From NCBI RefSeq assembly GCF_054482525.1, contig NZ_JBTHVG010000004.1: 64,000 nt of DNA. One strand, 5' to 3'. Position numbers and translations under genes: made by a program. The notes under the pieces are model-generated. The model saw nothing but the letters and a program-made list of their open reading frames with translations. It was not told where the DNA came from and did no database searches. Source of the stretch: a plasmid. The first letter of the stretch is position 1, and every line of letters starts with the position of its first letter. Below are positions 1 to 11,560 of this stretch, in pieces.

Positions 1-655
1 AGAGCGCACGCTGGCAGTCCAGGCGGCACTCATGCAGCAGCCGGACAAATCTCTGGCACTGCTGGCATGGACGCTCTGCCTGAATGTGTTTGGCAGCGGG
101 GCGTACAGTAAACCAGCACAAATCAGCCTGGAATGTGAACATTACTCGCTGACCAGCGATGCGCCATCGGGGAAGGAAGGTGCCGCATTCATGGCGCTGA
201 TGGCAGAAAAAGCCCGTCTTGCTGCCCTGTTACCGGAGGGATGGTCACGGGACATGACGACATTCCTGTCACTCAGTCAGGAGGTGCTGTTATCCCTGCT
301 CAGCTTCTGCACTGCGTGCAGCATCCACGGTGTTCAGACCCGTGAGTATGGTCACACGTCACGCAGTCCGCTGGACTCGCTGGAAACCGCTATCGGCTTT
401 CACATGCGCGACTGGTGGCAGCCGACAAAAGCAAACTTCTTCGGACACCTGAAAAAGCCGCAGATTATCGCAGCCCTGAATGAGGCAGGACTGTCCGGTG
501 CCGCACGGGACGCGGAGAAGATGAAGAAAGGCGATGCCGCTGAACATGCAGAGTTCCATATGAAAGACAACCGCTGGGTGCCTGGCTGGATGTGTTCACC
601 ACGTCCACAGACGGATGCCACTGAACGCGCCGATAACCTGGCTGATGCCGCCTGA
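1..655 (+). CDS. C-terminal part of a large conserved leading-region protein, probably ParB-like nuclease-domain family (as found upstream of psiB in F/IncI plasmids). The N-terminus lies outside the window.
   Basis: The reading frame is open from base 2 with no stop until 655. It sits immediately upstream of psiB, where IncI/F plasmids carry a ParB-like gene. No catalytic domain is visible in this fragment, so the family assignment is tentative. Confidence 0.4.
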   Translation, partial: ERTLAVQAALMQQPDKSLALLAWTLCLNVFGSGAYSKPAQISLECEHYSLTSDAPSGKEGAAFMALMAEKARLAALLPEGWSRDMTTFLSLSQEVLLSLLSFCTACSIHGVQTREYGHTSRSPLDSLETAIGFHMRDWWQPTKANFFGHLKKPQIIAALNEAGLSGAARDAEKMKKGDAAEHAEFHMKDNRWVPGWMCSPRPQTDATERADNLADAA

Positions 656-706
656 TGAACAACCACACCGCCCCGCCGGAGACGGGGCGGCAGAGGGAGA
701 AATACG

Positions 707-1144
707 ATGATGAATACCGAACTGACACTGAATGCCCTGCAGTCCATGAATGCCCAGGAATATGAAGAAATCCGTGCTGCGGGAAGCGATATGCGCCGTA
801 ATCTCACTCACGAGGTGATGCGTGAAGTGGACGCACCAGCTAACTGGATGATGAACGGAGAGTATGGCAGCGAGTTCGGGGGCTTTTTCCCCGTCCAGGT
901 TCGTTTCACGCCAGCCCACGAACGTTTCCACCTGGCATTATGTTCGCCGGGAGACGTCTCTCAGCTCTGGATGCTGGTTCTGGTGAATGGTGGTGGACAG
1001 CCTTTCGCCGTCGTTCAGGTGCAACATATCTTCACGCCTGTCGCGATCAGTCACACGCTGGCGCTTGCCGCGACACTGGATGCGCAGGGATACAGTGTTA
1101 ACGACATCATCCATATCCTGATGGCAGAAGGAGGTCAGGCATGA
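707..1144 (+). CDS. psiB: PsiB, plasmid SOS-inhibition protein B (145 aa)
   Basis: The protein sequence ([28 protein letters not shown]...[18 protein letters not shown]) matches the well-known PsiB sequence over its whole length. A GAGGGAG ribosome-binding site precedes it and it lies directly 5' of psiA. Confidence 0.9.
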
Positions 1145-1860
1145 GCGCACGTTCACGGGCACTGATCCCCCTCAGCGCAGAACAACAGGCCGCCATGCAG
1201 GCGGTGGCTGTCACAGAACAACGTCGTCGTCAGGGACGCACACTTTCAGCATGGCCTTATGCCACCGCTTTCTTTCGCTGCCTGAATGGCAGTCGCCGGA
1301 TTTCGCTGACCGATCTCCGCTTTTTTGCCCCTGCGCTGACGAAGGAGGAATTTCATGGCAACCGTCTCCTGTGGCTGGCTGCCGTGGATAAACTGATTGA
1401 AAGTTTTGGGGAAGTCTGTGTTCTTCCCCTGCCATCCGATGCGGGGCACCGTCTGTTCCCGTCCGTGCCTTTTCGTGAAGGTGAGCGTCGTCGTCAGAAA
1501 ACCACGCTGACAGAGCAGAAATACAGCCGCCAGCGGGAACGTGAGGCAGAACGACGGGAACTGGAATACCAGACATGTTTTGCTCAGGCGCAGATTGACC
1601 TTGCGTTTCATACTCCCGCCACGGTCGGAAGCTGGTTGTCCCGCTGGTCTGGTGTTGTTGAGGAGCATGATCTGGAAACGATTTTCTGGGGGTGGTGCGG
1701 GCGTTTTCCGTCACTGTCATCATTTGACCGGTTTTTCTGGCAGGAGGAACCACTCTGGCGGCTGATTTTTGAAGCCGGTGAGGCCGGTCGTGGTGCACCG
1801 ATACAGGTACGTGCACTTGAGCAGTGGATGATCCCGAACAAGCTGGAGAACGTAATATGA
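1141..1860 (+). CDS. psiA: PsiA, plasmid SOS-inhibition protein A (239 aa)
   Basis: Typical PsiA length and sequence. Its start overlaps the psiB stop (ATGA), consistent with translational coupling in the psiB-psiA operon of F and IncI1 leading regions. Confidence 0.88.
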
Positions 1861-2453
1861 TGAAATCAGACGAAAAATACCAGGTTCCCGCGTGGATGCG
1901 ACCTCTGTTGCCGTTGCTCTGCAACACCGGGGGGAACGATCCGGAAGAACTGCTGAATGATACAGAAACCACTGCCAGTGCGAATGTTGTCCGTTATGTA
2001 CTGATAGTTGCTGTGCGGTCGCAGGTTGATCTGCTGCAGCTTCTGTACAGGAAAGGGCTGTTGCGCACAGAGATACCAGGTGGCTTTTCACCGGAAGAAG
2101 CGCAGGCACTCCTGGATAATCTGGTGCGCAGCCATATCAGCAAGGCGCTGTCGGGCGAGCGAATGGCAGCCCGTGACAGAAATGCCGATCTGGCCTGGAT
2201 TAGACAGCAACTGGTCGATGCCGCCTGGTTTGTCCGTGCCACACTGGAAGCGCATGGGATGAGCGTCGGAAATGAGAGTCCCCCTGCTCCGCCGGAGACA
2301 ATGCCGGACATACAGACACGGGAACTGGTGATGTTGATCAAGCGACTGGCATCATCGCTGAAAGCGGTGAAACCGGACAGTTGTGTGGTGCGTGAAGCGC
2401 AGGACTGGCTGCGCGACAGAAAACTTGTGGATATCACAGATATTCTCCGGTGA
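1857..2453 (+). CDS. conserved hypothetical leading-region protein downstream of psiA (198 aa from ATG 1857)
   Basis: The ATG overlaps the psiA stop. It is a long ORF with balanced codon usage and no recognisable motif. Confidence 0.55.
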   Translation: MMKSDEKYQVPAWMRPLLPLLCNTGGNDPEELLNDTETTASANVVRYVLIVAVRSQVDLLQLLYRKGLLRTEIPGGFSPEEAQALLDNLVRSHISKALSGERMAARDRNADLAWIRQQLVDAAWFVRATLEAHGMSVGNESPPAPPETMPDIQTRELVMLIKRLASSLKAVKPDSCVVREAQDWLRDRKLVDITDILR

Positions 2454-2499
2454 ACCAGGCATGTATATTTTACGCAGGGACATGCCGGTCATGATCGTT

Positions 2500-2890
2500 T
2501 CGTTCCAGGGGTGGTCTGGAGATCATGCGGTGTGCTCCCTGCTCTCGCCGGAATAAGGACGTCGCCGCCGGCTCCGCTTTTACCCGGCCATGCGGGGCAT
2601 GGCCTTGTGGGTTTTCAGTTATGTGGCCTCAGCGTCGTGTGCGGGCTGTGCCGTGCCTCCATCGTAGCCGGGCTTCTGCGGGCGGGTTGCAAGGTAAGGT
2701 GAACCGCTGCGGTCACCCGGTCCCTCCTTCCCGTCCGCCGTGATTTTCCGGTCGTTCACCCGCTCAGATTTCGCGGTCTCACCCTCCAACTCCCGCCAGC
2801 CGTGTGCGTCAGGCTGCGGCTTCCCTTGCGCCCTTGCAACCCTGCAGGCCCGGCAAAGATGGAGGCACGGCACCGCCCGGTGTCGCAGAA
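2500..2890 (+). promoter_or_regulatory. GC-rich, hairpin-rich non-coding element upstream of ardA; candidate single-strand DNA promoter (ssi/Frpo-type)
   Basis: About 390 bp of non-coding sequence at >65% GC, full of short inverted repeats. It lies directly 5' of ardA, which in ColIb-P9 is known to be expressed early from a single-strand promoter. The secondary structure was not folded here. Confidence 0.4.
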
Positions 2891-2914
2891 CATGTGACTA
2901 TGGAGGATTCGGGA

Positions 2915-3415
2915 ATGTCTGTTGTTGCACCTGCTGTATACGTTGGAACCTGGCACAAATACAACTGTGGAAGCATCGCCGGACGCTGGTTTGACCTGAC
3001 CACGTTTGATGATGAGCGCGACTTTTTCGCCGCCTGCCGTGCTCTTCACCAGGATGAAGCCGATCCTGAACTGATGTTTCAGGATTATGAGGGATTCCCG
3101 GGGAATATGGCCTCTGAATGCCATATCAACTGGGCCTGGGTTGAAGGCTTCCGCCAGGCACGGGATGAAGGCTGCGAAGAGGCTTATCGTCTCTGGGTGG
3201 AGGATACCGGTGAGACGGATTTTGACACCTTCCGCGATGCCTGGTGGGGCGAGGCTGACAGTGAGGAGGCTTTTGCGGTTGAGTTCGCCAGTGATACCGG
3301 CCTGCTGGCTGACGTGCCGGAGACGGTGGCGCTCTATTTTGACTATGAGGCGTATGCGCGGGATTTATTCCTGGACTCCTTCACCTTTATTGACGGTCAT
3401 GTGTTCCGTCGGTGA
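2915..3415 (+). CDS. ardA: ArdA antirestriction protein (type I restriction inhibitor, DNA mimic), 166 aa
   Basis: MSVVAPAVYVGTWHKYNCGSIAGRWFDLTTFDDERDFF... is the canonical ColIb-P9/R64 ArdA. A GGAGGA ribosome-binding site sits 7 nt upstream of ATG 2915; the longer ORF from 2804 is an upstream extension. Confidence 0.92.
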   Translation: MSVVAPAVYVGTWHKYNCGSIAGRWFDLTTFDDERDFFAACRALHQDEADPELMFQDYEGFPGNMASECHINWAWVEGFRQARDEGCEEAYRLWVEDTGETDFDTFRDAWWGEADSEEAFAVEFASDTGLLADVPETVALYFDYEAYARDLFLDSFTFIDGHVFRR

Positions 3416-3770
3416 TTTACTCCCCCGCTCCGGCGGGGGTATGGCCTGCCAGGCCGCCGGAAAACCCTGGCAGGCTTACGCCTGCCTGAAATGCAGGAGG
3501 GCCGCGCCTGCGGCGCTGCCCTTCCTGCCCGTCATGGTGTGAGGCATTTTTCTGTTATGTCGTTTCTGTTGTTCTGATTTCCGGAGGCGGGGACACCTTC
3601 GGCTCCCGGCTGCCTGGCGGCATCCGGTCGTCAGGCCCGACTCCGACAGGCAGCTGCTGGCGCACCCGCCAGTCTCCGCCGAACCCGCTGGCGCGGTTTC
3701 GGGCTGCCGCTACGGTCCGATGTCTGAAAAACCAGGCTTGCAGCGACCGTTCCGGTCGCGCCGCCCCTGT

Positions 3771-4117
3771 CGCGCCGGAAACGGCGCTCCCTGCACACCT
3801 GACGGTGTGTAAGGCCACTGCGCCTGATGGCGCAGTCAACCCTTCCGCCGCCACCCCTGCGGCCTGTTTCCCGCTGTGGACTTTCCGGGGGCTGGAGTAA
3901 CCACATCCCGTTTCAGCAGTCCAGGGGAAGATATACCGTCCACAAAATTTTTAGCCATAAACCCGGCAAAAAATTTTGCGTCCGCCCCCGGACAGCTGCC
4001 CCGTGACGTGGTGACGGACGCCCCATCGGAAAGGTCCACTGCGGGGAGAAACCCCGAAGAAGTGGACGGCAGAAGGGGCTTTCGCCCCTCCGGGGAGCAA
4101 CCGGTCGGCCCGGCGAC
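3771..4117 (+). promoter_or_regulatory. Frpo/ssi-like single-strand promoter element, repeat copy A (about 85% identical to 6636..6992)
   Basis: GC-rich non-coding block with long imperfect inverted repeats (e.g. ctccctgcacacctgacggtgtgtaagg, ccccgtgacgtggtgacggacgcccc). It ends 25 bp before the ribosome-binding site of ORF 4144, is on the strand expected for leading-strand ssDNA transcription toward oriT, and is repeated at 6636..6992. Confidence 0.5.
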
Positions 4118-4143
4118 CTGATTCAGCAGAAGGAGACGTTTTC

Positions 4144-4578
4144 ATGACTGTCAGCAGCACGATTTCCGTTTTTTGCCGCGACGGGGTGTTCCGTACCGTT
4201 TACTGCCACCTGCACGGTGAGCCGACCTGGAACGGTCGCATCCTGCATACCCACTATGCCACCGGTCAGCAGGCCGAAGCCCTGGTTGAACACGGTGATA
4301 TCCGTTGCCTCGGTCCCCGTTGCGACAAACCCGCCGGGCATACGCTTCAGAACCCGGTGGACGGTGTGACGGCTTATTACGGACGTGACAGTGGTTTCCG
4401 GATGGACAGTGAGGCGCGTGAGTACCGTTCTTTCAGGGAGGCTATTGCCACTGAAAGCACTGAAGAGGTGCGCTTCCATTATGTGTTCATCGACGGCTAC
4501 TGGAAGGTGATGTACCGCACGCCGGAAGGCTGGAAGATGAAAGCGCTCGCGCTGGCACTGCGTCGCTGTCCGAAATGA
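4144..4578 (+). CDS. hypothetical protein (144 aa) directly downstream of Frpo-like element A
   Basis: GAAGGAG ribosome-binding site 8 nt before the ATG. Clean ORF (MTVSSTISVFCRDGVFRTVYCHLHGEPTWNG...) with no motif I can name. Confidence 0.6.
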   Translation: MTVSSTISVFCRDGVFRTVYCHLHGEPTWNGRILHTHYATGQQAEALVEHGDIRCLGPRCDKPAGHTLQNPVDGVTAYYGRDSGFRMDSEAREYRSFREAIATESTEEVRFHYVFIDGYWKVMYRTPEGWKMKALALALRRCPK

Positions 4579-4670
4579 AAAAAGGCAGGGCGATAAACCC
4601 TGCCTCTCTCCGCCGGCGCTTCCCCGCCAGGAAGTCCGGCATCTCAATCACTATCTATGGAGATTATGCC

Positions 4671-4937
4671 ATGAGACCATCAATTATCTTCGCAACCGCC
4701 GAGTATGTAAAGCGTCTGCGTGAAGAGTGCCTGCGGGAGAATAAACCCCTGCACCGCCATACCCGCTTCAGACGTCAGGAGCTGGCACAGGATGAGATTA
4801 ACCCGGACGTCCTGGCGATGAGCGGCCATATCGCCAGACGCTGCAGTGAGCAGAAGCGGGTGCGTATCCCCGCTATGAAAGTCAGCGAATGGGGCCACCT
4901 GCTCCGCGCGCTTGAAATTGAGCGGGTCTGCCACTGA
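4671..4937 (+). CDS. hypothetical small protein (88 aa)
   Basis: GGAG ribosome-binding site before ATG 4671 (MRPSIIFATAEYVKRLREECL...). The longer ORF from 4575 lacks a ribosome-binding site. Confidence 0.5.
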   Translation: MRPSIIFATAEYVKRLREECLRENKPLHRHTRFRRQELAQDEINPDVLAMSGHIARRCSEQKRVRIPAMKVSEWGHLLRALEIERVCH

Positions 4938-5001
4938 TTAACCCTTGCCGTCTGCCTGTGCAGGCGGCAGGATACGTTCAGACATCTCACCAGGAGGAAC
5001 C

Positions 5002-5892
5002 GTGAGTAAGAAGAAAACCACCACGACGCCCACGCCGCATGATGCCGCGTTCCGGTCGTTCCTGGCGAATCCCGACGTCGCCAGAGATTTTCTGGAACTG
5101 CATCTTCCGGCGGAGTACCGGCAGTTGTGCGACCTGTCCACGCTGAAGCTGGAACCCGCCACCTTTGTTGAGCCGGACCTGCATCAGTACGCCAGCGATA
5201 TCCTCTGGAGTGTGAAAACCACCGGGGGTGAAGACGGCTATGTTTATACGCTCATCGAGCACCAGAGCACCGAAAATCTGTACATGCCTTTCCGCATGTT
5301 ACGTTACAGTGTGGCGGCGATGCAGAGACATCTGGAGCAGCACAAAACGTTGCCACTGGTGATTCCTGTGCTGTTCTATCATGGTGAGCGCAGCCCGTAC
5401 CCGTACAGCATGAACTGGCTGGACTGTTTTGAGAATCCGGCACTTGCGGCTAAAATATACACAAAGCCGTTTCCGCTGGTTGATATCACTGTCGTTGATG
5501 ACAATGAAATCATGAACCATCGCCGGATGGCCGCACTGACGCTGCTGATGAAGCATATCCGCCATCGTGACATGATGGATCTGCTGGACAAACTCCCGCA
5601 GGTCATGGTGGAAATTTCAGACGAGCAGGTGCGTGTTCTGATTCATTACATCGTTAACGCAGGGGACTCTGTATCACCGGAATTTATGCGGGCGCTGGCT
5701 GAGCGTCTGCCGCAGCATGAGGATAAACTGATGACTATCGCAGAACGTCTTGAGCAAAAAGGTCGCCAGGAAGGAGCGCTTGAAAAAGCCCTGGCTATTG
5801 CGTGCCAGCTTCAGAAAATGGGGATGACGCCGGAGCAGATTAAGCAGGCTACCGGACTTTCCGAAGCTGAACTGAAAAAAATCATTCACTGA
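5002..5892 (+). CDS. Rpn-family recombination-promoting nuclease (YhgA-like, PD-(D/E)XK, 'transposase_31' family), 296 aa
   Basis: An AGGAGG ribosome-binding site precedes a GTG start at 5002. The N-terminus (TPHDAAFRSFLANPDVARDFLELHLP), the ...EHQS... core and the C-terminal helical tail (ERLEQKGRQEG...MGMTPEQIKQATGLSEAELKKI) are characteristic of E. coli RpnA-E. Confidence 0.8.
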   Translation: MSKKKTTTTPTPHDAAFRSFLANPDVARDFLELHLPAEYRQLCDLSTLKLEPATFVEPDLHQYASDILWSVKTTGGEDGYVYTLIEHQSTENLYMPFRMLRYSVAAMQRHLEQHKTLPLVIPVLFYHGERSPYPYSMNWLDCFENPALAAKIYTKPFPLVDITVVDDNEIMNHRRMAALTLLMKHIRHRDMMDLLDKLPQVMVEISDEQVRVLIHYIVNAGDSVSPEFMRALAERLPQHEDKLMTIAERLEQKGRQEGALEKALAIACQLQKMGMTPEQIKQATGLSEAELKKIIH

Positions 5893-5905
5893 TGAGAGCA
5901 TCACA

Positions 5906-5930
5906 GCCCGGCAAAATGCCGGGCTTTTTT
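5906..5930 (+). terminator. rho-independent terminator after rpn
   Basis: Hairpin agcccggc-aaaat-gccgggct followed by TTTTTT. Confidence 0.6.
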
Positions 5931-5954
5931 GTCAGCAGGAGCAGAGAAAACAGT

Positions 5955-6149
5955 ATGACGCTTGCAGAACGTCTTATACAGAAAGGTTTCGACGAAGGTT
6001 TTAAAGAAGGTTTTAAGAAAGGTGCGCTTGAAGTGGCGCGGGAAGCAGCCTGCCGGCTGCGGGATATGGGCTGGACGCCGGAACGGATTCAGGAGGCGAC
6101 CGGACTTTCCGGTGAAGAACTGAAAAAGCTGTTTCCTGATGAGCAGTAG
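5955..6149 (+). CDS. small protein (64 aa) equivalent to the Rpn C-terminal domain only (ypaA/RpnS-like)
   Basis: MTLAERLIQKGFDEGFKEG...DMGWTPERIQEATGLSGEELKKLF is collinear with the last ~60 aa of the upstream Rpn (MTIAERLEQKGRQEG...KMGMTPEQIKQATGLSEAELKKII). An alternative start at ATG 5892 overlaps the rpn stop (TGATG) but would read through the terminator hairpin. Confidence 0.5.
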   Translation: MTLAERLIQKGFDEGFKEGFKKGALEVAREAACRLRDMGWTPERIQEATGLSGEELKKLFPDEQ

Positions 6150-6179
6150 CCTGACATTCTGCCAGGCTGTGAATCACGC

Positions 6180-6431
6180 TCACACATTCCCTGCCGTTTC
6201 CCCCAGTTCATTTTCCAGACGCCTGATGATATCTGCCTTGCGCATCCCCTGCATGTGAGGCAGCAGGTCACGGACTGAAAGTGCCTGGGTGGTCCTCCAG
6301 ACGGTGACGTCCACCTGTTCCGCATTTTCCCAGGCGTGCCATGTTCTCTGCGTCACGCCAAATTCTCTGGCCGCTTTTTCGCGTGACCATAGCATGCTTT
6401 TTCGCCAGATTCGCAGTTCCCAGCCGGTCAT
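6180..6431 (-). CDS. XRE-family helix-turn-helix transcriptional regulator (83 aa)
   Basis: The HTH signature (...AAREFGVTQRTWHAWENAEQ...) is typical of Cro/CI-type repressors. It is the only minus-strand gene inside the leading-region block. Confidence 0.6.
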   Translation of the reverse strand: MTGWELRIWRKSMLWSREKAAREFGVTQRTWHAWENAEQVDVTVWRTTQALSVRDLLPHMQGMRKADIIRRLENELGETAGNV

Positions 6432-6447
6432 AAAACACCTTTGAAAA

Positions 6448-6531
6448 AGTGAAAAAACTTCACTTTATTTTATCATCACAATTGCCAAATCAGCGCGATA
6501 AATAAGTGTAAAAAAGTGAAGAAATTTCACT
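6448..6531. promoter_or_regulatory. two palindromic operator-like sites AGTGAA-N5-TTCACT (6448..6464 and 6515..6531) in the promoter region of the XRE gene
   Basis: Both are perfect hexamer palindromes with 5-bp spacers, 67 bp apart, in an AT-rich stretch immediately upstream of the minus-strand HTH gene start. Confidence 0.35.
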
Positions 6532-6635
6532 TTTTTTGTTTGTAAGTGTCGTGCGGTTTTCTCTGTTTTCACCTGTGCGGGAGTGGTGTGCCAGTGACCA
6601 CCACATGCCATTGTTGTGCCGTCGTTTTTCTTCAG

Positions 6636-6992
6636 TCGCGCCGGATGCGGCGCTCCCTGCACACCTTACGGTGTGTAAGGCCACTGCGCCTGATGGCGCA
6701 GCTGTCTCTTGCCTGTCTGCCGCCGCACTGCGGCCTGTTCTCCGCAGACGGACTTTCCGGGGGTACATACACGACCACATCCCGTTTCAGTCGTCCAGGG
6801 GAGAGATGTACCAGCCACAAAACTTTTTGCCGCTGGCGTCAAAAACTTTTGCGTCTGCCCCCGGACAACTGCCCCGTGACGTGGTGAGCGTCCCCCGTCG
6901 GAAAGGTCCACTGCGGGGAAATACCCTAAGACCCGGACGGCAGAAGGAGCTTCGCTCCTCCGGGAAATGACCTGGCTGACCCGGCAGTCGTG
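6636..6992 (+). promoter_or_regulatory. Frpo/ssi-like single-strand promoter element, repeat copy B
   Basis: About 85% identical to 3771..4117 in several long patches. It ends just before the ribosome-binding site (AGGAG) of the DUF4942-like gene at 7012. Confidence 0.5.
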
Positions 6993-7011
6993 ACGATGAG
7001 GAGACAATGTG

Positions 7012-7860
7012 ATGAATCAGACTTTACCCACTGCTGACCTGAATACTGCCGGCACGACAGATGTTATTCCGTCTGTGGCTATCGACCGCATCATCGCGCA
7101 GCGTAACGAAGGTATTGCACTATTCATGCAGGCGATGGAATGCCTGGCGACAGCGCGCAGGATTCTGCTCGATGCGTCAGGTGATATTTTTCTTTACGGG
7201 TTTGAAGACTGCGTGACTGATTCCGTTCGTCGCATGGATAAGCCGGAAGAAGCGAAAAGGAATATCACCCGTCTTGCCGACCGGAAAATCTGGGACCGCC
7301 TGATGACAGATACGGGCATGTACACCTTCATGAGTTCATGCCAGCGTGATGAGTGGAACAGCCAGCTGATGAGCGACACCTGTCCTGAAATCACCCTGGA
7401 CAATGTACTGGCAACATTCCGCCATCTTAATACCAGCAAGATGCAGACGTTTGAACAGGGACTGATTGATGTCTACCGGAAATTGTCATGGGATTACAGA
7501 ACCAATAATCCCTGCCGTCTGGGCAAGAAAATCATTATTGAAAACATGCTGTACCGCTGGAGTAACGGGCGTGTGACGCTGGACTGCAGCGGACGGGAGG
7601 CACTGGATGACCTGGTACGTCCTTTTTATCTGCTGGAGGGGCGAAACGTTCCTGACTTCCGGAGCAGCATCGGGGCGCAGTATGGTGAATTTCTCGGGAA
7701 CGGCGACAACGTCGGTAAGCTGTTAGAAGGGGAATATTTTACGGTGCGTGGCTACCAGAAAGGGACCGTACACATTGTCTTTAAGCGTCCTGACCTTGTT
7801 GAAAAACTGAATGATATTATTGCACGGCATTATCCTGGTGCATTGCCGCCACGAGTCTGA
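7012..7860 (+). CDS. conserved plasmid leading-region protein, DUF4942-like (282 aa)
   Basis: AGGAG ribosome-binding site 9 nt before ATG 7012 (a GTG at 7009 is also possible). The size and sequence resemble the DUF4942 proteins commonly annotated between ardA and nikA in IncI1/IncB/O/K plasmids; this is recalled from memory, not searched. Confidence 0.5.
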   Translation: MNQTLPTADLNTAGTTDVIPSVAIDRIIAQRNEGIALFMQAMECLATARRILLDASGDIFLYGFEDCVTDSVRRMDKPEEAKRNITRLADRKIWDRLMTDTGMYTFMSSCQRDEWNSQLMSDTCPEITLDNVLATFRHLNTSKMQTFEQGLIDVYRKLSWDYRTNNPCRLGKKIIIENMLYRWSNGRVTLDCSGREALDDLVRPFYLLEGRNVPDFRSSIGAQYGEFLGNGDNVGKLLEGEYFTVRGYQKGTVHIVFKRPDLVEKLNDIIARHYPGALPPRV

Positions 7861-7868
7861 TTAAACAG

Positions 7869-7900
7869 AAAAGCCCTGGTATTTATGCCGGGGCTTTTTT
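7869..7900. terminator. bidirectional rho-independent terminator
   Basis: Hairpin aaaagccctgg-tatttatg-ccggggctttttttt, with an A-run before and a T-run after. Confidence 0.5.
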
Positions 7901-7945
7901 TTCTGTAATCATCATAATCTCAGAACACGATGTGACATTGTCACA

Positions 7946-8281
7946 TCAATTGTTGTTCATATCGATGCCATCTTTCCTGCCTGAATCTGTCTTTTTAGGT
8001 GCTGTTTTAGAGGAAGAACGGCGGGATGGTTTTTTCGATTCTGCTTCCCGAATAATGTCACGAAGTGCCTTCTCTCCTACTTCATACCCTGCATTTTTAA
8101 GCGTGTCACGAACATCTGCCAGTGTATAACCCTTTGTCCTTACCAGGACAATGATGTCATCACGAATGGCATCAAGAAAATCACGCAATGTTTTCCGTTG
8201 AGCGGTGAGGTCCGGCAATTCCGATAAGGCAGCTTTTGCCAGCTGGATGTCATCATCTGAGTAAAATTTTTTAGAAGCCAT
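7946..8281 (-). CDS. hypothetical basic/acidic small protein (111 aa) next to oriT, transcribed away from oriT
   Basis: GGAGAG ribosome-binding site before ATG 8281 (MASKKFYSDDDIQLAKAAL...). It has a Lys/Ser/Arg-rich C-terminal tail, which may indicate a DNA-binding accessory protein. Confidence 0.5.
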   Translation of the reverse strand: MASKKFYSDDDIQLAKAALSELPDLTAQRKTLRDFLDAIRDDIIVLVRTKGYTLADVRDTLKNAGYEVGEKALRDIIREAESKKPSRRSSSKTAPKKTDSGRKDGIDMNNN

Positions 8282-8399
8282 TGGCACTTTCTCTCCGTTT
8301 CATGTTGAAGTCTGATTTTATCATCAAAAACTGACTCCTGGCAGGGCTGCGCCCTGCTTCTGCCGTCTGCATAAGACTATGATGCACAAAAATAACAGG

Positions 8400-8480
8400 C
8401 TATAATGGCCTGAAAAACGGGACAGGATGTGCAATTGTAATACCGTCACACGCGACGCTATTACAATTGCCATCTGGTCA
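8400..8480 (-). other. oriT: oriT (nic region plus NikA-binding inverted repeat) of IncI1 type
   Basis: Inverted repeat gcaattgtaata...tattacaattgc at 8431..8470. The adjacent minus-strand sequence acatcctgtcccgtttttcagg matches my memory of the R64 oriT nick region. It lies immediately upstream of nikA, and the leading-region genes all point toward it. Confidence 0.7.
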
Positions 8481-8514
8481 GGGCTTCGCCCCGACACCCC
8501 GTAAGGAGCCTGAA

Positions 8515-8847
8515 GTGAGTGATAGTGCGGTAAGAAAGAAAAGTGAGGTACGGCAAAAGACAGTTGTCAGGACACTCAGATTCTCTCCTGTTGAGGATGA
8601 AACCATCAGGAAAAAAGCTGAAGATTCCGGACTTACTGTATCTGCTTACATCCGAAATGCAGCACTGAATAAGCGAATTAACTCCCGTACAGATGATGCT
8701 TTTCTGAAGGAGTTAATGAGACTGGGAAGGATGCAGAAGCATCTGTTTGTTCAGGGAAAAAGAACCGGTGACAAGGAATACGCAGAAGTGCTTGTTGCCA
8801 TAACCGAACTTACAAATACATTGCGTAAACAGTTAATGGAAGGTTGA
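8515..8847 (+). CDS. nikA: NikA, oriT-binding relaxosome accessory protein (110 aa, ribbon-helix-helix)
   Basis: AAGGAG ribosome-binding site and GTG start. VSDSAVRKKSEVRQKTVVRTLRFSPVEDETIRKKAEDSGLTVSAYIRNAAL... matches R64 NikA. Confidence 0.85.
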   Translation: MSDSAVRKKSEVRQKTVVRTLRFSPVEDETIRKKAEDSGLTVSAYIRNAALNKRINSRTDDAFLKELMRLGRMQKHLFVQGKRTGDKEYAEVLVAITELTNTLRKQLMEG

Positions 8848-8857
8848 GGATTCTCCG

Positions 8858-11560
8858 GTGAATGCAGTCATTCCGAAAAAGAGAAGGGACGGCAAGTCTT
8901 CGTTCGAAGACCTGGTATCCTACGTCTCTGTCCGGGATGACATGACCGATGAGGAACTGGATTTATCTTCTTCTTCGCAGGCTGAACAACCGCACCGAAG
9001 CCGTTTCAGTCGCCTTGTTGATTATGCGACACGTCTTCGAAATGAGTCATTCGTGGCGCTGGTTGATGTCATGAAGGACGGCTGCGAATGGGTCAACTTT
9101 TATGGTGTCACCTGCTTTCATAACTGTACTTCTCTTGAAACTGCCGCTGCAGATATGGAGTACATTGCCCGGCAGGCACACTATGCAAAAGATGACACTG
9201 ATCCTGTTTTTCACTACATCCTTTCCTGGCAGTCACATGAAAGCCCGCGTCCGGAACAGATTTATGACAGTGTACGTCATACGCTGAAATCACTCGGCCT
9301 TGCCGACCATCAGTATGTCTCTGCCGTGCATACTGATACAGATAATCTGCACGTCCATGTGGCTGTTAACCGGGTACACCCTGAAACGGGTTATCTGAAC
9401 CGGTTATCATGGAGTCAGGAAAAACTCAGTCGTGCCTGCCGTGAGCTTGAACTGAAGCATGGTTTTGCTCCGGATAACGGTTGCTGGGTCCATGCGCCGG
9501 GAAATCGTATCGTTCGCAAAACTGCCGTTGAACGTGATCGCCAGAACGCTTGGACACGCGGAAAAAAACAAACTTTTCGCGAGTATGTTGCGCAGACAGC
9601 GGTCGCTGGTTTACGCAGTGAACCTGTACATGACTGGTTATCCCTGCATCGTCGTCTTGCTGAAGATGGTTTGTACCTGTCTCAGATGGACGGAAAATTT
9701 CTGGTGATGGATGGCTGGGATCGCAACAGGGAAGGTGTACAGCTTGACTCGTTTGGTCCCTCCTGGTGTGCAGAAAAACTCATGAAAAAAATGGGTGACT
9801 ACACGCCAGTGCCAAAAGACATTTTCAGCCAGGTGGAAGCACCAGGACGCTATAATCCGGACTTCATTGCAGCTGATGTTCGCCCGGAAAAAATCGCTGA
9901 AACAGAAAGTCTGCAGCAGTATGCCTGTCGTCATCTTGGAGAACGTCTGCCGGAAATGGCACGGGAAGGACGGCTGGAAAACTGCCAGGCTATTCACCGC
10001 ACACTGGCTGAAGCGGGATTATGGATGCGTGTTCAGCATGGTCACCTGGTTATCTGTGACGGTTATGATCATAACCAGACTCCCGTTCGTGCTGACAGCG
10101 TATGGTCACTGCTGACGCTCGACAATGTGAATCAACTCGATGGTGGCTGGCAGCCTGTACCAACAGATATTTTCCGCCAGGTTACGCCAACAGAACGCTT
10201 CCGTGGTCGTCGTATGGAGAGCTGTCCTGCGACCGATAAAGAATGGCACCGTATGCGTACAGGTACGGGGCCGCAGGGGGCTATCAAACGCGAACTGTTT
10301 TCTGACAAAGAAAGTCTGTGGGGATACAGCATCAGCCATTGTAGCCCTCAGATTGAAGAAATGATCACACAGGGTGAGTTTACCTGGCAGCGTTGTCATG
10401 AGTTGTTTGCACAACAGGGACTGATGCTACAGAAACAACATCACGGGCTTGTTGTCGTTGATGCCTTTAATCATGAGCAAACGCCGGTGAAGGCCAGCAG
10501 CATTCATCCTGATCTGACTCTGGGGCGTGCAGAGCCACAGGCCGGACCTTTTGTGAGTGCCCCAGCAGATTTGTTTGACAGGGTGCAACCTGAAAGTCGC
10601 TATAACCCGGAGCTGGCTGTCAGTGACAGGTACGGGGTCAGCAGTAAACGTGACCCAATGCTGCGCCGGCAGCGACGTGAAGCCAGAGCTGAGGCCCGTG
10701 CTGACCTGCGTGCCCGCTATCTGGCATGGCGTGAACAATGGCGTAAACCAGATCTGCGTTATGGGGAACGTTGTCGGGAAATTCATCAGGCATGCCGTCT
10801 GCGGAAGTCACACATTCGTGCGCAGTACGATGATCCGGCATTACGTAAGCTGCATTATCACATTGCAGAAGTTCAGCGAATGCAGGCATTGATCAGGCTG
10901 AAAGAAGACATCAGGGATGAGCGGCAGAAACTTATTGCTGACGGGAAGTGGTATCCACCCTCTTACCGTCAGTGGGTCGAAATTCAGGCTGCTCAGGGAG
11001 ACAGGGCTGCTGTATCGCAGCTGAGAGGCTGGGATTATCGCGATCGCCGTAAAGATAAGTCACGCACAACGACAACAGACCGCTGTGTCGTGCTTTGTGA
11101 ACCGGGCGGAACGCCGGTATACGGTAATACCGGTGATCTCGAGGCCCGTTTGCAGAAGAACGGGAGTGTTCGTTTCCGTGACCGTCGGACGGGAGAGTTT
11201 GTCTGTACGGATTATGGTGACAGGGTTGTTTTCCGTAATCACCATGACCGCAATGCGCTGGCAGATAAACTGGATTTGATTGCACCGGTATTATTCGGGC
11301 GTGATCCACGCATGGGTTTTGAACCAGAAGGAAACGACAAACAATTTAACCAGGTCTTTGCTGAAATGGTTGCCTGGCATAATGTGACAGGCCGTACCGG
11401 TCACGAAGACTACAGGATTACGCGACCGGACGTGGATCATCACCGTGAAGGAAGTGAACGCTACTACCGCGATTATATCGCGGCGAACAGCAACGATGAC
11501 GCATCACTGCCTCCGCCGGAGCAGGATAAACTCTGGGAACCGCCTTCTCCGATGAGATGA
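8858..11560 (+). CDS. nikB: NikB relaxase (MOBP family), about 900 aa
   Basis: The size and the N-terminal relaxase region match R64 NikB (HHY..., the HVHVAVNRVHPETG motif containing the His triad). It immediately follows nikA. Confidence 0.9.
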   Translation: MNAVIPKKRRDGKSSFEDLVSYVSVRDDMTDEELDLSSSSQAEQPHRSRFSRLVDYATRLRNESFVALVDVMKDGCEWVNFYGVTCFHNCTSLETAAADMEYIARQAHYAKDDTDPVFHYILSWQSHESPRPEQIYDSVRHTLKSLGLADHQYVSAVHTDTDNLHVHVAVNRVHPETGYLNRLSWSQEKLSRACRELELKHGFAPDNGCWVHAPGNRIVRKTAVERDRQNAWTRGKKQTFREYVAQTAVAGLRSEPVHDWLSLHRRLAEDGLYLSQMDGKFLVMDGWDRNREGVQLDSFGPSWCAEKLMKKMGDYTPVPKDIFSQVEAPGRYNPDFIAADVRPEKIAETESLQQYACRHLGERLPEMAREGRLENCQAIHRTLAEAGLWMRVQHGHLVICDGYDHNQTPVRADSVWSLLTLDNVNQLDGGWQPVPTDIFRQVTPTERFRGRRMESCPATDKEWHRMRTGTGPQGAIKRELFSDKESLWGYSISHCSPQIEEMITQGEFTWQRCHELFAQQGLMLQKQHHGLVVVDAFNHEQTPVKASSIHPDLTLGRAEPQAGPFVSAPADLFDRVQPESRYNPELAVSDRYGVSSKRDPMLRRQRREARAEARADLRARYLAWREQWRKPDLRYGERCREIHQACRLRKSHIRAQYDDPALRKLHYHIAEVQRMQALIRLKEDIRDERQKLIADGKWYPPSYRQWVEIQAAQGDRAAVSQLRGWDYRDRRKDKSRTTTTDRCVVLCEPGGTPVYGNTGDLEARLQKNGSVRFRDRRTGEFVCTDYGDRVVFRNHHDRNALADKLDLIAPVLFGRDPRMGFEPEGNDKQFNQVFAEMVAWHNVTGRTGHEDYRITRPDVDHHREGSERYYRDYIAANSNDDASLPPPEQDKLWEPPSPMR

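Follow-up and report, generated by a model that had tools for sequence, protein, structure and literature searches.

Hairpin blocks in the leading region of an IncI1 plasmid as probable single-strand DNA promoters of two families

Introduction

The leading region of plasmid pESBL contains six single-stranded DNA (ssDNA) promoters of three classes, which are formed by intergenic hairpins (PMC12672017). All six hairpins, including those upstream of ardA, of the operon of a 144-aa open reading frame (ORF), and of the DUF4942 gene, drive strong zygotic induction (up to ~500-fold at 15 min), and the start sites at all six promoters have been mapped by 5′ RACE (PMC12672017). In uvrD-deficient recipients, the induction is stronger at 60 min, and not at 30 min (PMC12672017). 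In the F plasmid, deletion of Frpo1 or Frpo2 abolishes early expression (Couturier et al. 2023, PMC9849209), and an anti-CRISPR under Frpo control is effective only when encoded on the T-strand within the leading region (PMC11541004). Furthermore, the ssp1/Frpo transcripts prime conversion, and F ssp2 is a replication roadblock that is resolved by UvrD (bioRxiv 10.64898/2026.01.09.698686). Groups of anti-defence genes encoded on the T-strand near oriT, each behind an Frpo-like hairpin, have been described as anti-defence islands (Samuel et al. 2024, PMC11541004).

Here, we describe three GC-rich non-coding blocks (A, B, and C) in a 64-kb stretch of an IncI1/ColIb-P9-type plasmid (the window, to which all coordinates refer), and assign them, with a probability of about 93%, as ssDNA promoters of the IncI1 leading region. 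In this analysis, the assignment is based on the identity to named elements, on stable hairpins that are strand-specific, on covariation, and on the orientation of the genes. Others, working with identical or near-identical sequences, have observed zygotic induction, mapped the start sites, and shown that early expression is lost on deletion; these results would extend to the present blocks by analogy.

Results

The leading region extends from psiB up to oriT (~8.43 kb). At about 8.4 kb, where the earlier note had placed oriT, a 17-nt inverted repeat (8431–8470, unstranded; 94% complementary) was found directly upstream of nikA (8515–8847) and nikB (8858–11560), both annotated in homologues. 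The location of nikA/nikB beyond this repeat identifies the minus strand as the one transferred, and the published T-strand ssi sequences are also the minus strand of the window. The payload genes of the leading region are on the plus strand, pointing to oriT, and are templated by the transferred minus strand. Instead of the single minus-strand gene counted previously, there are two, an HTH regulator gene (6180–6431) and a MobC-like gene (7946–8287) that adjoins oriT. The former is annotated as an HTH regulator, and its match to Pfam HTH_31 (E = 6e-5) is under the gathering score. Two A/T-rich palindromes (6444–6469 and 6510–6535) are located upstream of the HTH gene, and a doubtful 65-aa ORF (6465–6662) is annotated in some records.

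As the earlier note had observed, the three non-coding blocks lie immediately 5′ of ardA (2915), the 144-aa ORF (4144), and the DUF4942 gene (7012). The ardA gene (2915–3415, plus strand), identified by Pfam ArdA (E = 2.3e-29) and by the ArdA annotation in homologous plasmids, is an anti-restriction gene and the payload of the class 2 promoter block A. Downstream of block B (ssi2) are the 144-aa ORF (4144–4578), an 88-aa ORF (4671–4937), rpn (5002–5892; Pfam Transposase_31/YhgA-like, E = 3e-78), and a small ORF resembling the C-terminus of rpn (5955–6149), all on the plus strand, with their order and strand matched in pEC488-KPC-2 and pESBL. The DUF4942 gene (7012–7860, plus strand; Pfam DUF4942, E = 9e-51, and annotation in homologues) is the payload of block C (ssi1), and is the earliest correctly oriented coding gene entering the recipient.

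Blocks B and C belong to the class 1/Frpo type. Block B (3767–4092, minus strand) is ssi2, with 99.7% identity to ColIb-P9 AJ238399:4353-4678 (326 nt), and block C (6633–6962, minus strand) is ssi1, with 98.5% identity to AJ238399:1459-1787 (329 nt, full length); these two ColIb-P9 segments are listed as 'ColIb P-9 Frpo2/Frpo1' in Supplementary Table 2 of PMC11541004. Differing from ssi1/ssi2 of ColIb-P9 (Bates et al. 1999) by only a few point changes, C and B share with them the strand, the position relative to oriT, and the downstream genes. The pESBL copies are 100% identical to block B over 3740–4143 and 98.8% identical to block C; for these copies, as for F Frpo1 and Frpo2, early transient expression in recipients and sigma-70 RNA polymerase transcription confined to the single-stranded form have been reported (PMC12672017, PMC9849209). 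Between themselves, B and C show 81.4% identity over 338 nt in blastn (E = 1e-80) and a mean column identity of 85% in a MAFFT alignment, in agreement with the earlier description of ~340-bp repeats about 85% identical; the repeat is thus genuine, but at 81–85% identity it is diverged rather than near-identical, as it had also been called. Indels of 1, 2, and 5 nt between B and C indicate that the blocks are not coding. No further copy of B/C was found by blastn in the window, and the third paralogue, ssi3, located upstream of ssb, lies beyond it.

The main hairpin of block B spans ~3846–4071 and has an A/T-rich apical stem; that of block C spans ~6716–6944. The same long T-strand hairpin with an A/T-rich apical stem is found in Frpo1 (ssiD) and Frpo2 of F (Masai and Arai 1997; PMC9849209), alias ssp1, which also share with B/C the CCCTGGAC -35-like segment, a TGTG motif 17 nt downstream, and a leading-region location upstream of early genes. 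The core of ~80–115 nt is 73–80% identical between F ssiD/Frpo2 and B/C, whereas the outer arms have unrelated sequences, and the downstream genes are ygeA/ygeB and the ssb operon in F, but DUF4942 and the 144-aa ORF/rpn in the window. The spacer between ardA and ssi2 (3416–3766, minus strand), which is outside the published promoter limits, is also GC-rich (67%) and structured (z = -5.25 for the T-strand fold of 3416–3800), with small conserved hairpins at its oriT-proximal end that run on into 3767–3800. A homologous region lies upstream of ssi3, and ~45–56 nt of the spacer are 87–93% identical to the sequence adjoining F Frpo1 and Frpo2.

Block A (2630–2890, minus strand) is a class 2/ssp2 single-strand promoter hairpin upstream of ardA, with T-strand arms at 2848–2879 (5′ arm) and 2642–2673 (3′ arm) that constitute a 32-nt inverted repeat of 91% complementarity. 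It is 88.9% identical to the ardA-upstream element of pESBL, and 88% identical to each of the klcA-upstream elements of pESBL and F. Compared with the class 2 elements of pESBL (PMC12672017) and F ssp2 (88–89% identity over ~360–410 nt), block A has the same hairpin, and it shares with pESBL class 2 the CCCTTGCA and GCCCGGC-TAnnnT-GG motifs and the position 5′ of ardA; its 5′ arm is 4 nt shorter, and its 3′ arm has 5 additional nt between the candidate boxes, the candidate -35 to -10 spacer being 20 nt versus 15 nt in the pESBL copies. Block A also has a class 2 homologue in candidate Frpo′ 4 of PMC11541004. No similarity of block A to B or C was detected by blastn. Judged by sequence, the three blocks form two unrelated families, with A as a separate class and not a diverged copy of B/C. 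The earlier view of three single-strand-promoter-like elements holds in that all are assigned as single-strand promoters, and is modified in that they represent two families, block A being class 2/ssp2.

The GC contents of blocks A, B, and C are 65.7%, 63.7%, and 62.5%, respectively, against a window average of 49.1%, so that the figure of >65% once given for all three is true only of A; the density of inverted repeats was confirmed in each. The minus-strand DNA folds have minimum free energies of -100.2 kcal/mol (z = -3.75) for A, -109.9 kcal/mol (z = -9.6) for B, and -106.1 kcal/mol (z = -8.1) for C, and none of 100 shuffled sequences for each block folded as well as the native one. The T-strand fold is more stable than the plus-strand fold by 13 kcal/mol in block B, in which seven G-T pairs on the T-strand become C-A mismatches on the other strand, and by 15 kcal/mol in block C, whereas the two strands of block A hardly differ in fold stability. 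No Rfam family matched the blocks.

Conservation is preferentially at paired positions, and compensatory changes occur both among ssi1–3 and across families. Among 20 diverse class 1 elements, 74.7% of the cells in the core are paired and 21 of the 40 pairs are compensatory (7–13 in controls), the counted structure having been derived from the window's own copy. In class 2, comprising 29 elements from Enterobacterales, 96.5% of the cells are paired and 25 of the 50 pairs are compensatory (4–6 in slid controls), with part of helix 1 fixed by the search pattern; this covariation mostly splits two clades (16 versus 13 sequences), and hence represents few independent events. The covariation across Enterobacterales supports both hairpin families.

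As a check, the earlier note had suggested a search for long imperfect hairpins with embedded promoter boxes on the transferred strand. Such a hairpin is present in all three blocks, but a strict sigma-70 scan of the hairpin arms was negative on both strands, and the boxes assigned here are degenerate (3–4 of 6 matches for the -35, and 1–4 of 6 for the -10). In block A, the candidate boxes are TTGCAA (-35; 2692–2687) and TACGAT (-10; 2666–2661, in an internal loop), with a putative start at ~2865–2871. In block B, they are TGGACT (-35; 3923–3918), an extended -10 TGTGG (3905–3901), and a degenerate -10 TTACTC (3900–3895) at an internal loop, and transcription may start at ~4022–4030. The corresponding candidates in block C are TGGACG (-35; 6797–6792), TGTGG (6779–6775), and a degenerate -10 (6774–6769), with a predicted start at ~6893–6900. 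In class 1, a conserved T(G/T)GAC(N) is accompanied by a 17-nt spacer with TGTG(G/C) at its end and by a degenerate hexamer, which is located at an internal loop. In class 2, CCCTTGCA is conserved together with a TAnnnT hexamer, of which the TA...T positions are fixed by the search pattern; this hexamer lies in the internal loop, unpaired between two helices.

Discussion

The ssDNA promoter assignment suggests the following mechanism. During conjugation, the minus strand would enter the recipient with its 5′ end first from oriT (~8.43 kb), and each block would form a long imperfect hairpin ahead of complementary-strand synthesis. The paired stem would mimic a duplex promoter for sigma-70 RNA polymerase, with the -35-like hexamer at a place where the 3′ arm is paired and the -10 region in the conserved internal loop, where it would already be opened. 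Transcription would start on the 5′ arm and, with the transferred strand as template, continue beyond the hairpin to the downstream gene. When the complementary strand has been made, the hairpin would be ironed out and the promoter turned off, resulting in a short early burst of expression. In this manner, block A (class 2/ssp2) would drive ardA, block B (ssi2) the 144-aa ORF, the 88-aa ORF, and rpn, and block C (ssi1) the DUF4942 gene.

The blocks are unlikely to serve chiefly as single-strand initiation (priming) signals at which the complementary strand is begun, with the mRNA being incidental. It is true that priming was the activity for which the ssi elements were originally isolated (Nomura 1991, cited in PMC11541004), that in vitro DNA synthesis is primed by the Frpo transcript of F, and that early conversion at the ssp1/Frpo loci in vivo is sensitive to rifampicin (bioRxiv 10.64898/2026.01.09.698686). 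However, each block is directly 5′ of an operon in the sole orientation that permits transcription from the T-strand, the downstream genes are induced up to ~500-fold in recipient RNA-seq (PMC12672017), and Frpo deletions abolish the downstream protein production (PMC9849209). Priming is an added role beside transcription and not an alternative to it: the hairpin-started transcripts probably also prime complementary-strand synthesis, and the class 2 hairpin may also slow the conversion to double-stranded DNA.

Considerably less probable still is an ordinary duplex promoter/5′-UTR with hairpins that exert their effect at the mRNA level, such as attenuators or stability elements. Any DNA that forms hairpins yields RNA that does so, and the nearly equal folds of the two strands of block A would fit such a role. 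Nevertheless, no consensus duplex sigma-70 promoter was found on the plus strand upstream of the three genes, which, together with the lack of an Rfam match, argues against this explanation, as does the preference of B/C, by 13–15 kcal/mol, for folding on the strand opposite to the mRNA sense, the minus strand. A transcript begun on the 5′ arm would contain just one half of the hairpin. Moreover, expression drops as the DNA turns double-stranded and persists in uvrD-deficient recipients (PMC12672017). Finally, although B and C are dispersed repeats of ~330 bp with 81–85% identity within 3 kb, the chance that they lack a function and represent a small non-autonomous repeat, or the scar of a recombination, is negligible, because their position and orientation 5′ of operons are fixed in thousands of plasmids, conservation is preferentially at their paired positions and compensatory changes occur, and their function has been demonstrated experimentally (PMC12672017, PMC9849209).

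The ssDNA promoter reading thus agrees with the proposal of the earlier note that Frpo-like promoters on the T-strand drive separate payloads, which is supported by the assignment of B/C as ssi2/ssi1 and by the zygotic induction of their pESBL copies. The modular 'promoter plus payload' layout that it had suggested is the thesis of PMC11541004, and the window does not differ in substance from the set described there, being a typical member. Because the blocks are promoters that have already been described, the observation is correct but ordinary. The feature is a published one: hairpins that are reported to be active only on the incoming single strand, and to switch on anti-restriction and early genes.

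Gene order and transferred strand

The 2400–7100 region matches more than 1,800 PLSDB plasmids at >80% coverage (best, ~99% identity), nearly all of them conjugative plasmids of Escherichia, Salmonella, Klebsiella, and Shigella; the top match, pEC488-KPC-2, is of the IncI-gamma/K1 type with a MOBP relaxase and MPF_I. The window carries, in order, the C-terminus of a ParB-like gene (32–655), psiB (707–1144), psiA (1141–1860), an ORF ending at 2453, block A (2630–2890, minus strand), ardA (2915–3415, plus), a GC-rich spacer followed by block B (3767–4092, minus), ORFs of 144 aa (4144–4578, plus) and 88 aa (4671–4937, plus), rpn (5002–5892, plus), a small 64-aa ORF (5955–6149, plus), an HTH gene (6180–6431, minus), block C (6633–6962, minus), the DUF4942 gene (7012–7860, plus), and a MobC-like gene (7946–8287, minus). 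The oriT inverted repeat lies at 8431–8470, with nikA and nikB beyond it. On the minus strand, the inverted repeat is located 5' of the nick region with the leading region at lower coordinates, which identifies the minus strand as the transferred strand (T-strand) and as the template for the plus-strand leading-region genes. In agreement with this, the published T-strand ssi sequences correspond to the minus strand of the window. The C-terminal part of rpn is repeated in the small ORF that follows it (5756–5879 versus 6004–6127, 72% identity; 5731–5774 versus 5955–5998, 75%).

The earlier note held that a single leading-region gene departs from the plus strand, but two do so, the HTH and MobC-like genes. 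The incoming strand does not allow expression of the HTH gene. Directly upstream of it, within 6433–6540, are two A/T-rich palindromes (AAAGTGAA-N6-TTCACTTT) at 6444–6469 and 6510–6535, spaced by 66–67 bp, which resemble operator sites of an ordinary promoter active on double-stranded DNA.

Assignment of the non-coding blocks

Samuel et al. 2024 (PMC11541004) tabulate the known Frpo/ssi sequences in their supplement. Block C matches ColIb-P9 'Frpo1', that is, ssi1 (AJ238399:1459–1787), along all 329 nt at 98.5% identity, and block B is 99.7% identical over 326 nt to ColIb-P9 'Frpo2', that is, ssi2. The proposal that these two blocks are repeats was also confirmed (blastn, 81.4% over 338 nt, E = 1e-80; MAFFT column identity, 85%), with no further copy detected by blastn in the 64 kb. 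A third member, ssi3, lies upstream of ssb outside the window, but a sister plasmid carries it in its complete leading region. F plasmid ssiD/Frpo1 and Frpo2 differ in having only a central core of ~80–115 nt in common with blocks B and C, at 73–80% identity.

In the IncI1 plasmid pESBL, a hairpin-forming intergenic segment lies in front of each of six induced operons, and all six start sites were determined by 5' RACE (Wen et al. 2025, PMC12672017). These segments were divided into class 1 (ssi1–3 and Frpo), class 2 (upstream of ardA and klcA), and class 3 (upstream of M.EcoGIX). The window leading region is ~97–98% identical to that of pESBL, and block A, upstream of ardA, is homologous to the class 2 elements: identity is 88.9% and 88% for the two copies in pESBL and 88% for the one in F, which lies upstream of the F klcA homologue. 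In sister plasmids, a second copy of block A is present upstream of a klcA-type anti-restriction gene, and the candidate 'Frpo' 4' of Samuel et al. (PMC11541004) is also homologous to it. Altogether, the interpretation of the three blocks as single-strand promoters is supported.

That the blocks are three copies of one element was rejected, as block A has no detectable similarity to blocks B and C (blastn, word size 7); the three blocks belong to two unrelated families. Protein-coding blocks were likewise rejected, because the indels between B and C (1, 2, and 5 nt) are not multiples of three, which rules out coding, and no CDS runs across the blocks in homologous records. The sole CDS touching a block in these records is a doubtful 65-aa minus-strand ORF (6465–6662; RefSeq homologues, hypothetical protein), which extends over the A/T-rich palindromes into the first 28 nt of ssi1 and is probably spurious. 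An Rfam search of 1–10000 (E ≤ 1) gave three weak chance matches, none within the blocks. A GC content above 65%, ascribed earlier to all three blocks, holds for A (65.7%) and not for B (63.7%) or C (62.5%); that of the whole window is 49.1%.

Hairpin structure and covariation

DNA-mode folding of the minus strand, with z-scores against shuffles, gave long stem-loops for block B (MFE, −109.9 kcal/mol; z = −9.6), block C (−106.1 kcal/mol; z = −8.1), and block A (−100.2 kcal/mol; z = −3.75), with no shuffle folding as well in any case. For blocks B and C, the T-strand fold is better than the plus-strand fold by 13–15 kcal/mol and contains seven G–T pairs, equivalent to C–A mismatches on the complement, which constitutes a strand-specific signature. 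The fold of block A is nearly symmetric between the strands.

A common hairpin of ~230 nt with seven compensated pairs was found for the three IncI class 1 paralogues. Among 20 diverse class 1 elements, 74.7% of the core is paired and 21 of 40 pairs are compensated (7–13 in slid controls), as counted on a structure taken from the window's own copy and hence biased towards it; RNAalifold, run on the diverse alignment, was limited to five pairs by indels in the apical region. For class 2, a PLSDB 'distant' search aimed at divergent homologues returned at least 5000 records, those listed all being at least 88% identical, and was therefore replaced by a motif scan of one genome per species. About half of the scan matches were chance occurrences in GC-rich genomes, and were removed by requiring a complementary arm. 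The class 2 hairpins thus found occur in many Enterobacterales, including Erwinia, Pantoea, Mixta, Yersinia (also Yersinia pestis), Klebsiella, Rahnella, and Atlantibacter, and fall into two size classes with arm distances of ~146 or ~200 nt (loci L002–L121). In the long class (n = 29), pairing holds for 96.5% of cells, and compensatory changes are seen at 25 of 50 pairs (4–6 in slid controls), much of this covariation dividing two clades only and helix 1 being partly fixed by the search pattern. Class 1 elements often lie within a few kb of the class 2 hairpins at these loci. One of them, L023 (Erwinia sp. OLFS4), has a 24-nt arm motif that is perfectly palindromic and hence matches on both strands.

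Candidate promoter boxes

The presence of long T-strand stem-loops was borne out, and candidate box-like segments lie within them; a strict sigma-70 and terminator scan of 2400–7100 detected nothing resembling a promoter either 5' of the three genes or within the hairpin arms. In correction of a consensus reading, the candidate boxes are degenerate, with a pre-opened −10. The hairpin would provide the non-template strand, its 3' arm carrying, from loop to base, the −35 and then the −10, with the 5' arm as the template running on into the gene.

Class 2 elements share a conserved CCCTTGCA within a paired segment and a GCCCGGC-TAnnnT-GG hexamer at an internal loop near the base. In block A, the candidate boxes would be TTGCAA (2692–2687, −35) and TACGAT (2666–2661, −10), from which a start at ~2865–2871 and a 5' UTR of ~45–50 nt are predicted. 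Class 1 elements show, in order, an A/T-rich, UP-like apical stem, a conserved bulge of 9–10 nt, a paired CCCTGGAC segment with a −35-like TGGACT/TGGACG, a 17-nt spacer with a nearly invariant TGTG(G/C) end at the extended −10 position, and a degenerate hexamer by an internal loop. Placing the −10 in the conserved bulge (TATATCT/TACATCT), or the −35 at TTG(T/C)GG after the A/T tract, was rejected, as these placements give an impossible spacing or a −35 in the apical loop. The T(G/T)GACN-17-(TGTGn) reading, which is the most consistent one, was kept; it predicts starts at ~4022–4030 and ~6893–6900, with 5' UTRs of ~110–120 nt.

Class 2 allele and flanking hairpin module

Block A is a class 2 allele distinct from the pESBL and pEC488 copies. 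Its 5' arm is shorter by 4 nt and its 3' arm longer by 5 nt between the candidate −35 and −10, making the spacer 20 nt versus 15 nt, and by sequence comparison the putative internal loop between these boxes is rearranged. The same allele occurs at four scanned loci (L094, L095, L103, and L105), and 183 PLSDB records are at least 99% identical to it (2560–2914).

The spacer between ardA and ssi2 (3416–3800; GC, 67%) is also structured (T-strand fold, z = −5.25). Its oriT-proximal end (~3728–3800) is a two-hairpin module of ~70 nt carrying GCGACCGGAACGGTCGC and GCGCCGTTTCCGGCGC on the T-strand; it flanks class 1 promoters on their T-strand 3' side and also adjoins ssi3, F Frpo1, and F Frpo2. Between IncI ssi2/ssi3 and F Frpo1/Frpo2, the module is 87–93% identical, versus only 73–80% for the promoter core, and it lies partly beyond the published ssi/ssiD limits. 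It could act as an insulator that keeps transcription of the upstream operon from running on along the single-stranded template, or as a priming site. That the module is a separate single-strand signal and that the class 2 allele alters promoter strength or roadblock behaviour are together unlikely. The cited papers, PMC12672017 in its main text, address neither feature, and we regard both as minor leads rather than findings.

Relation to published function

The demonstrated steps of the mechanism come from the literature, on sequences identical or near-identical to those of the window. Induction in recipients decays across 30–60 min of mating, and in uvrD-deficient recipients is stronger at 60 min and not at 30 min (PMC12672017). 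Deletion of Frpo1 or Frpo2 abolishes early expression (PMC9849209), and the effect in an anti-CRISPR assay depends on strand and position (PMC11541004). A 2026 preprint, which renames the hairpin classes ssp1–3, reports that ssp1/Frpo transcripts help in priming complementary-strand synthesis and that F ssp2 acts by its structure as a roadblock, which UvrD resolves (bioRxiv 10.64898/2026.01.09.698686).

ssi1 and ssi2 have been known since 1999 and the class 2 promoter upstream of ardA since 2025; the modular layout of Frpo plus anti-defence payload, correctly recognised in the earlier note, has been known since 2023–2024. The window adds no new biology to the publications of 1997–2026. What it yields is annotation: names for three non-coding blocks unlabelled in databases (ssi1, ssi2, and a class 2/ssp2 promoter) and the placing of three operons in the early zygotic programme. 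Through single-strand promoters, genes for anti-restriction, SOS inhibition, and other establishment functions are turned on within minutes after the plasmid enters, while it is not yet double-stranded, and this early burst of expression is central to the passage of resistance plasmids through host defences.
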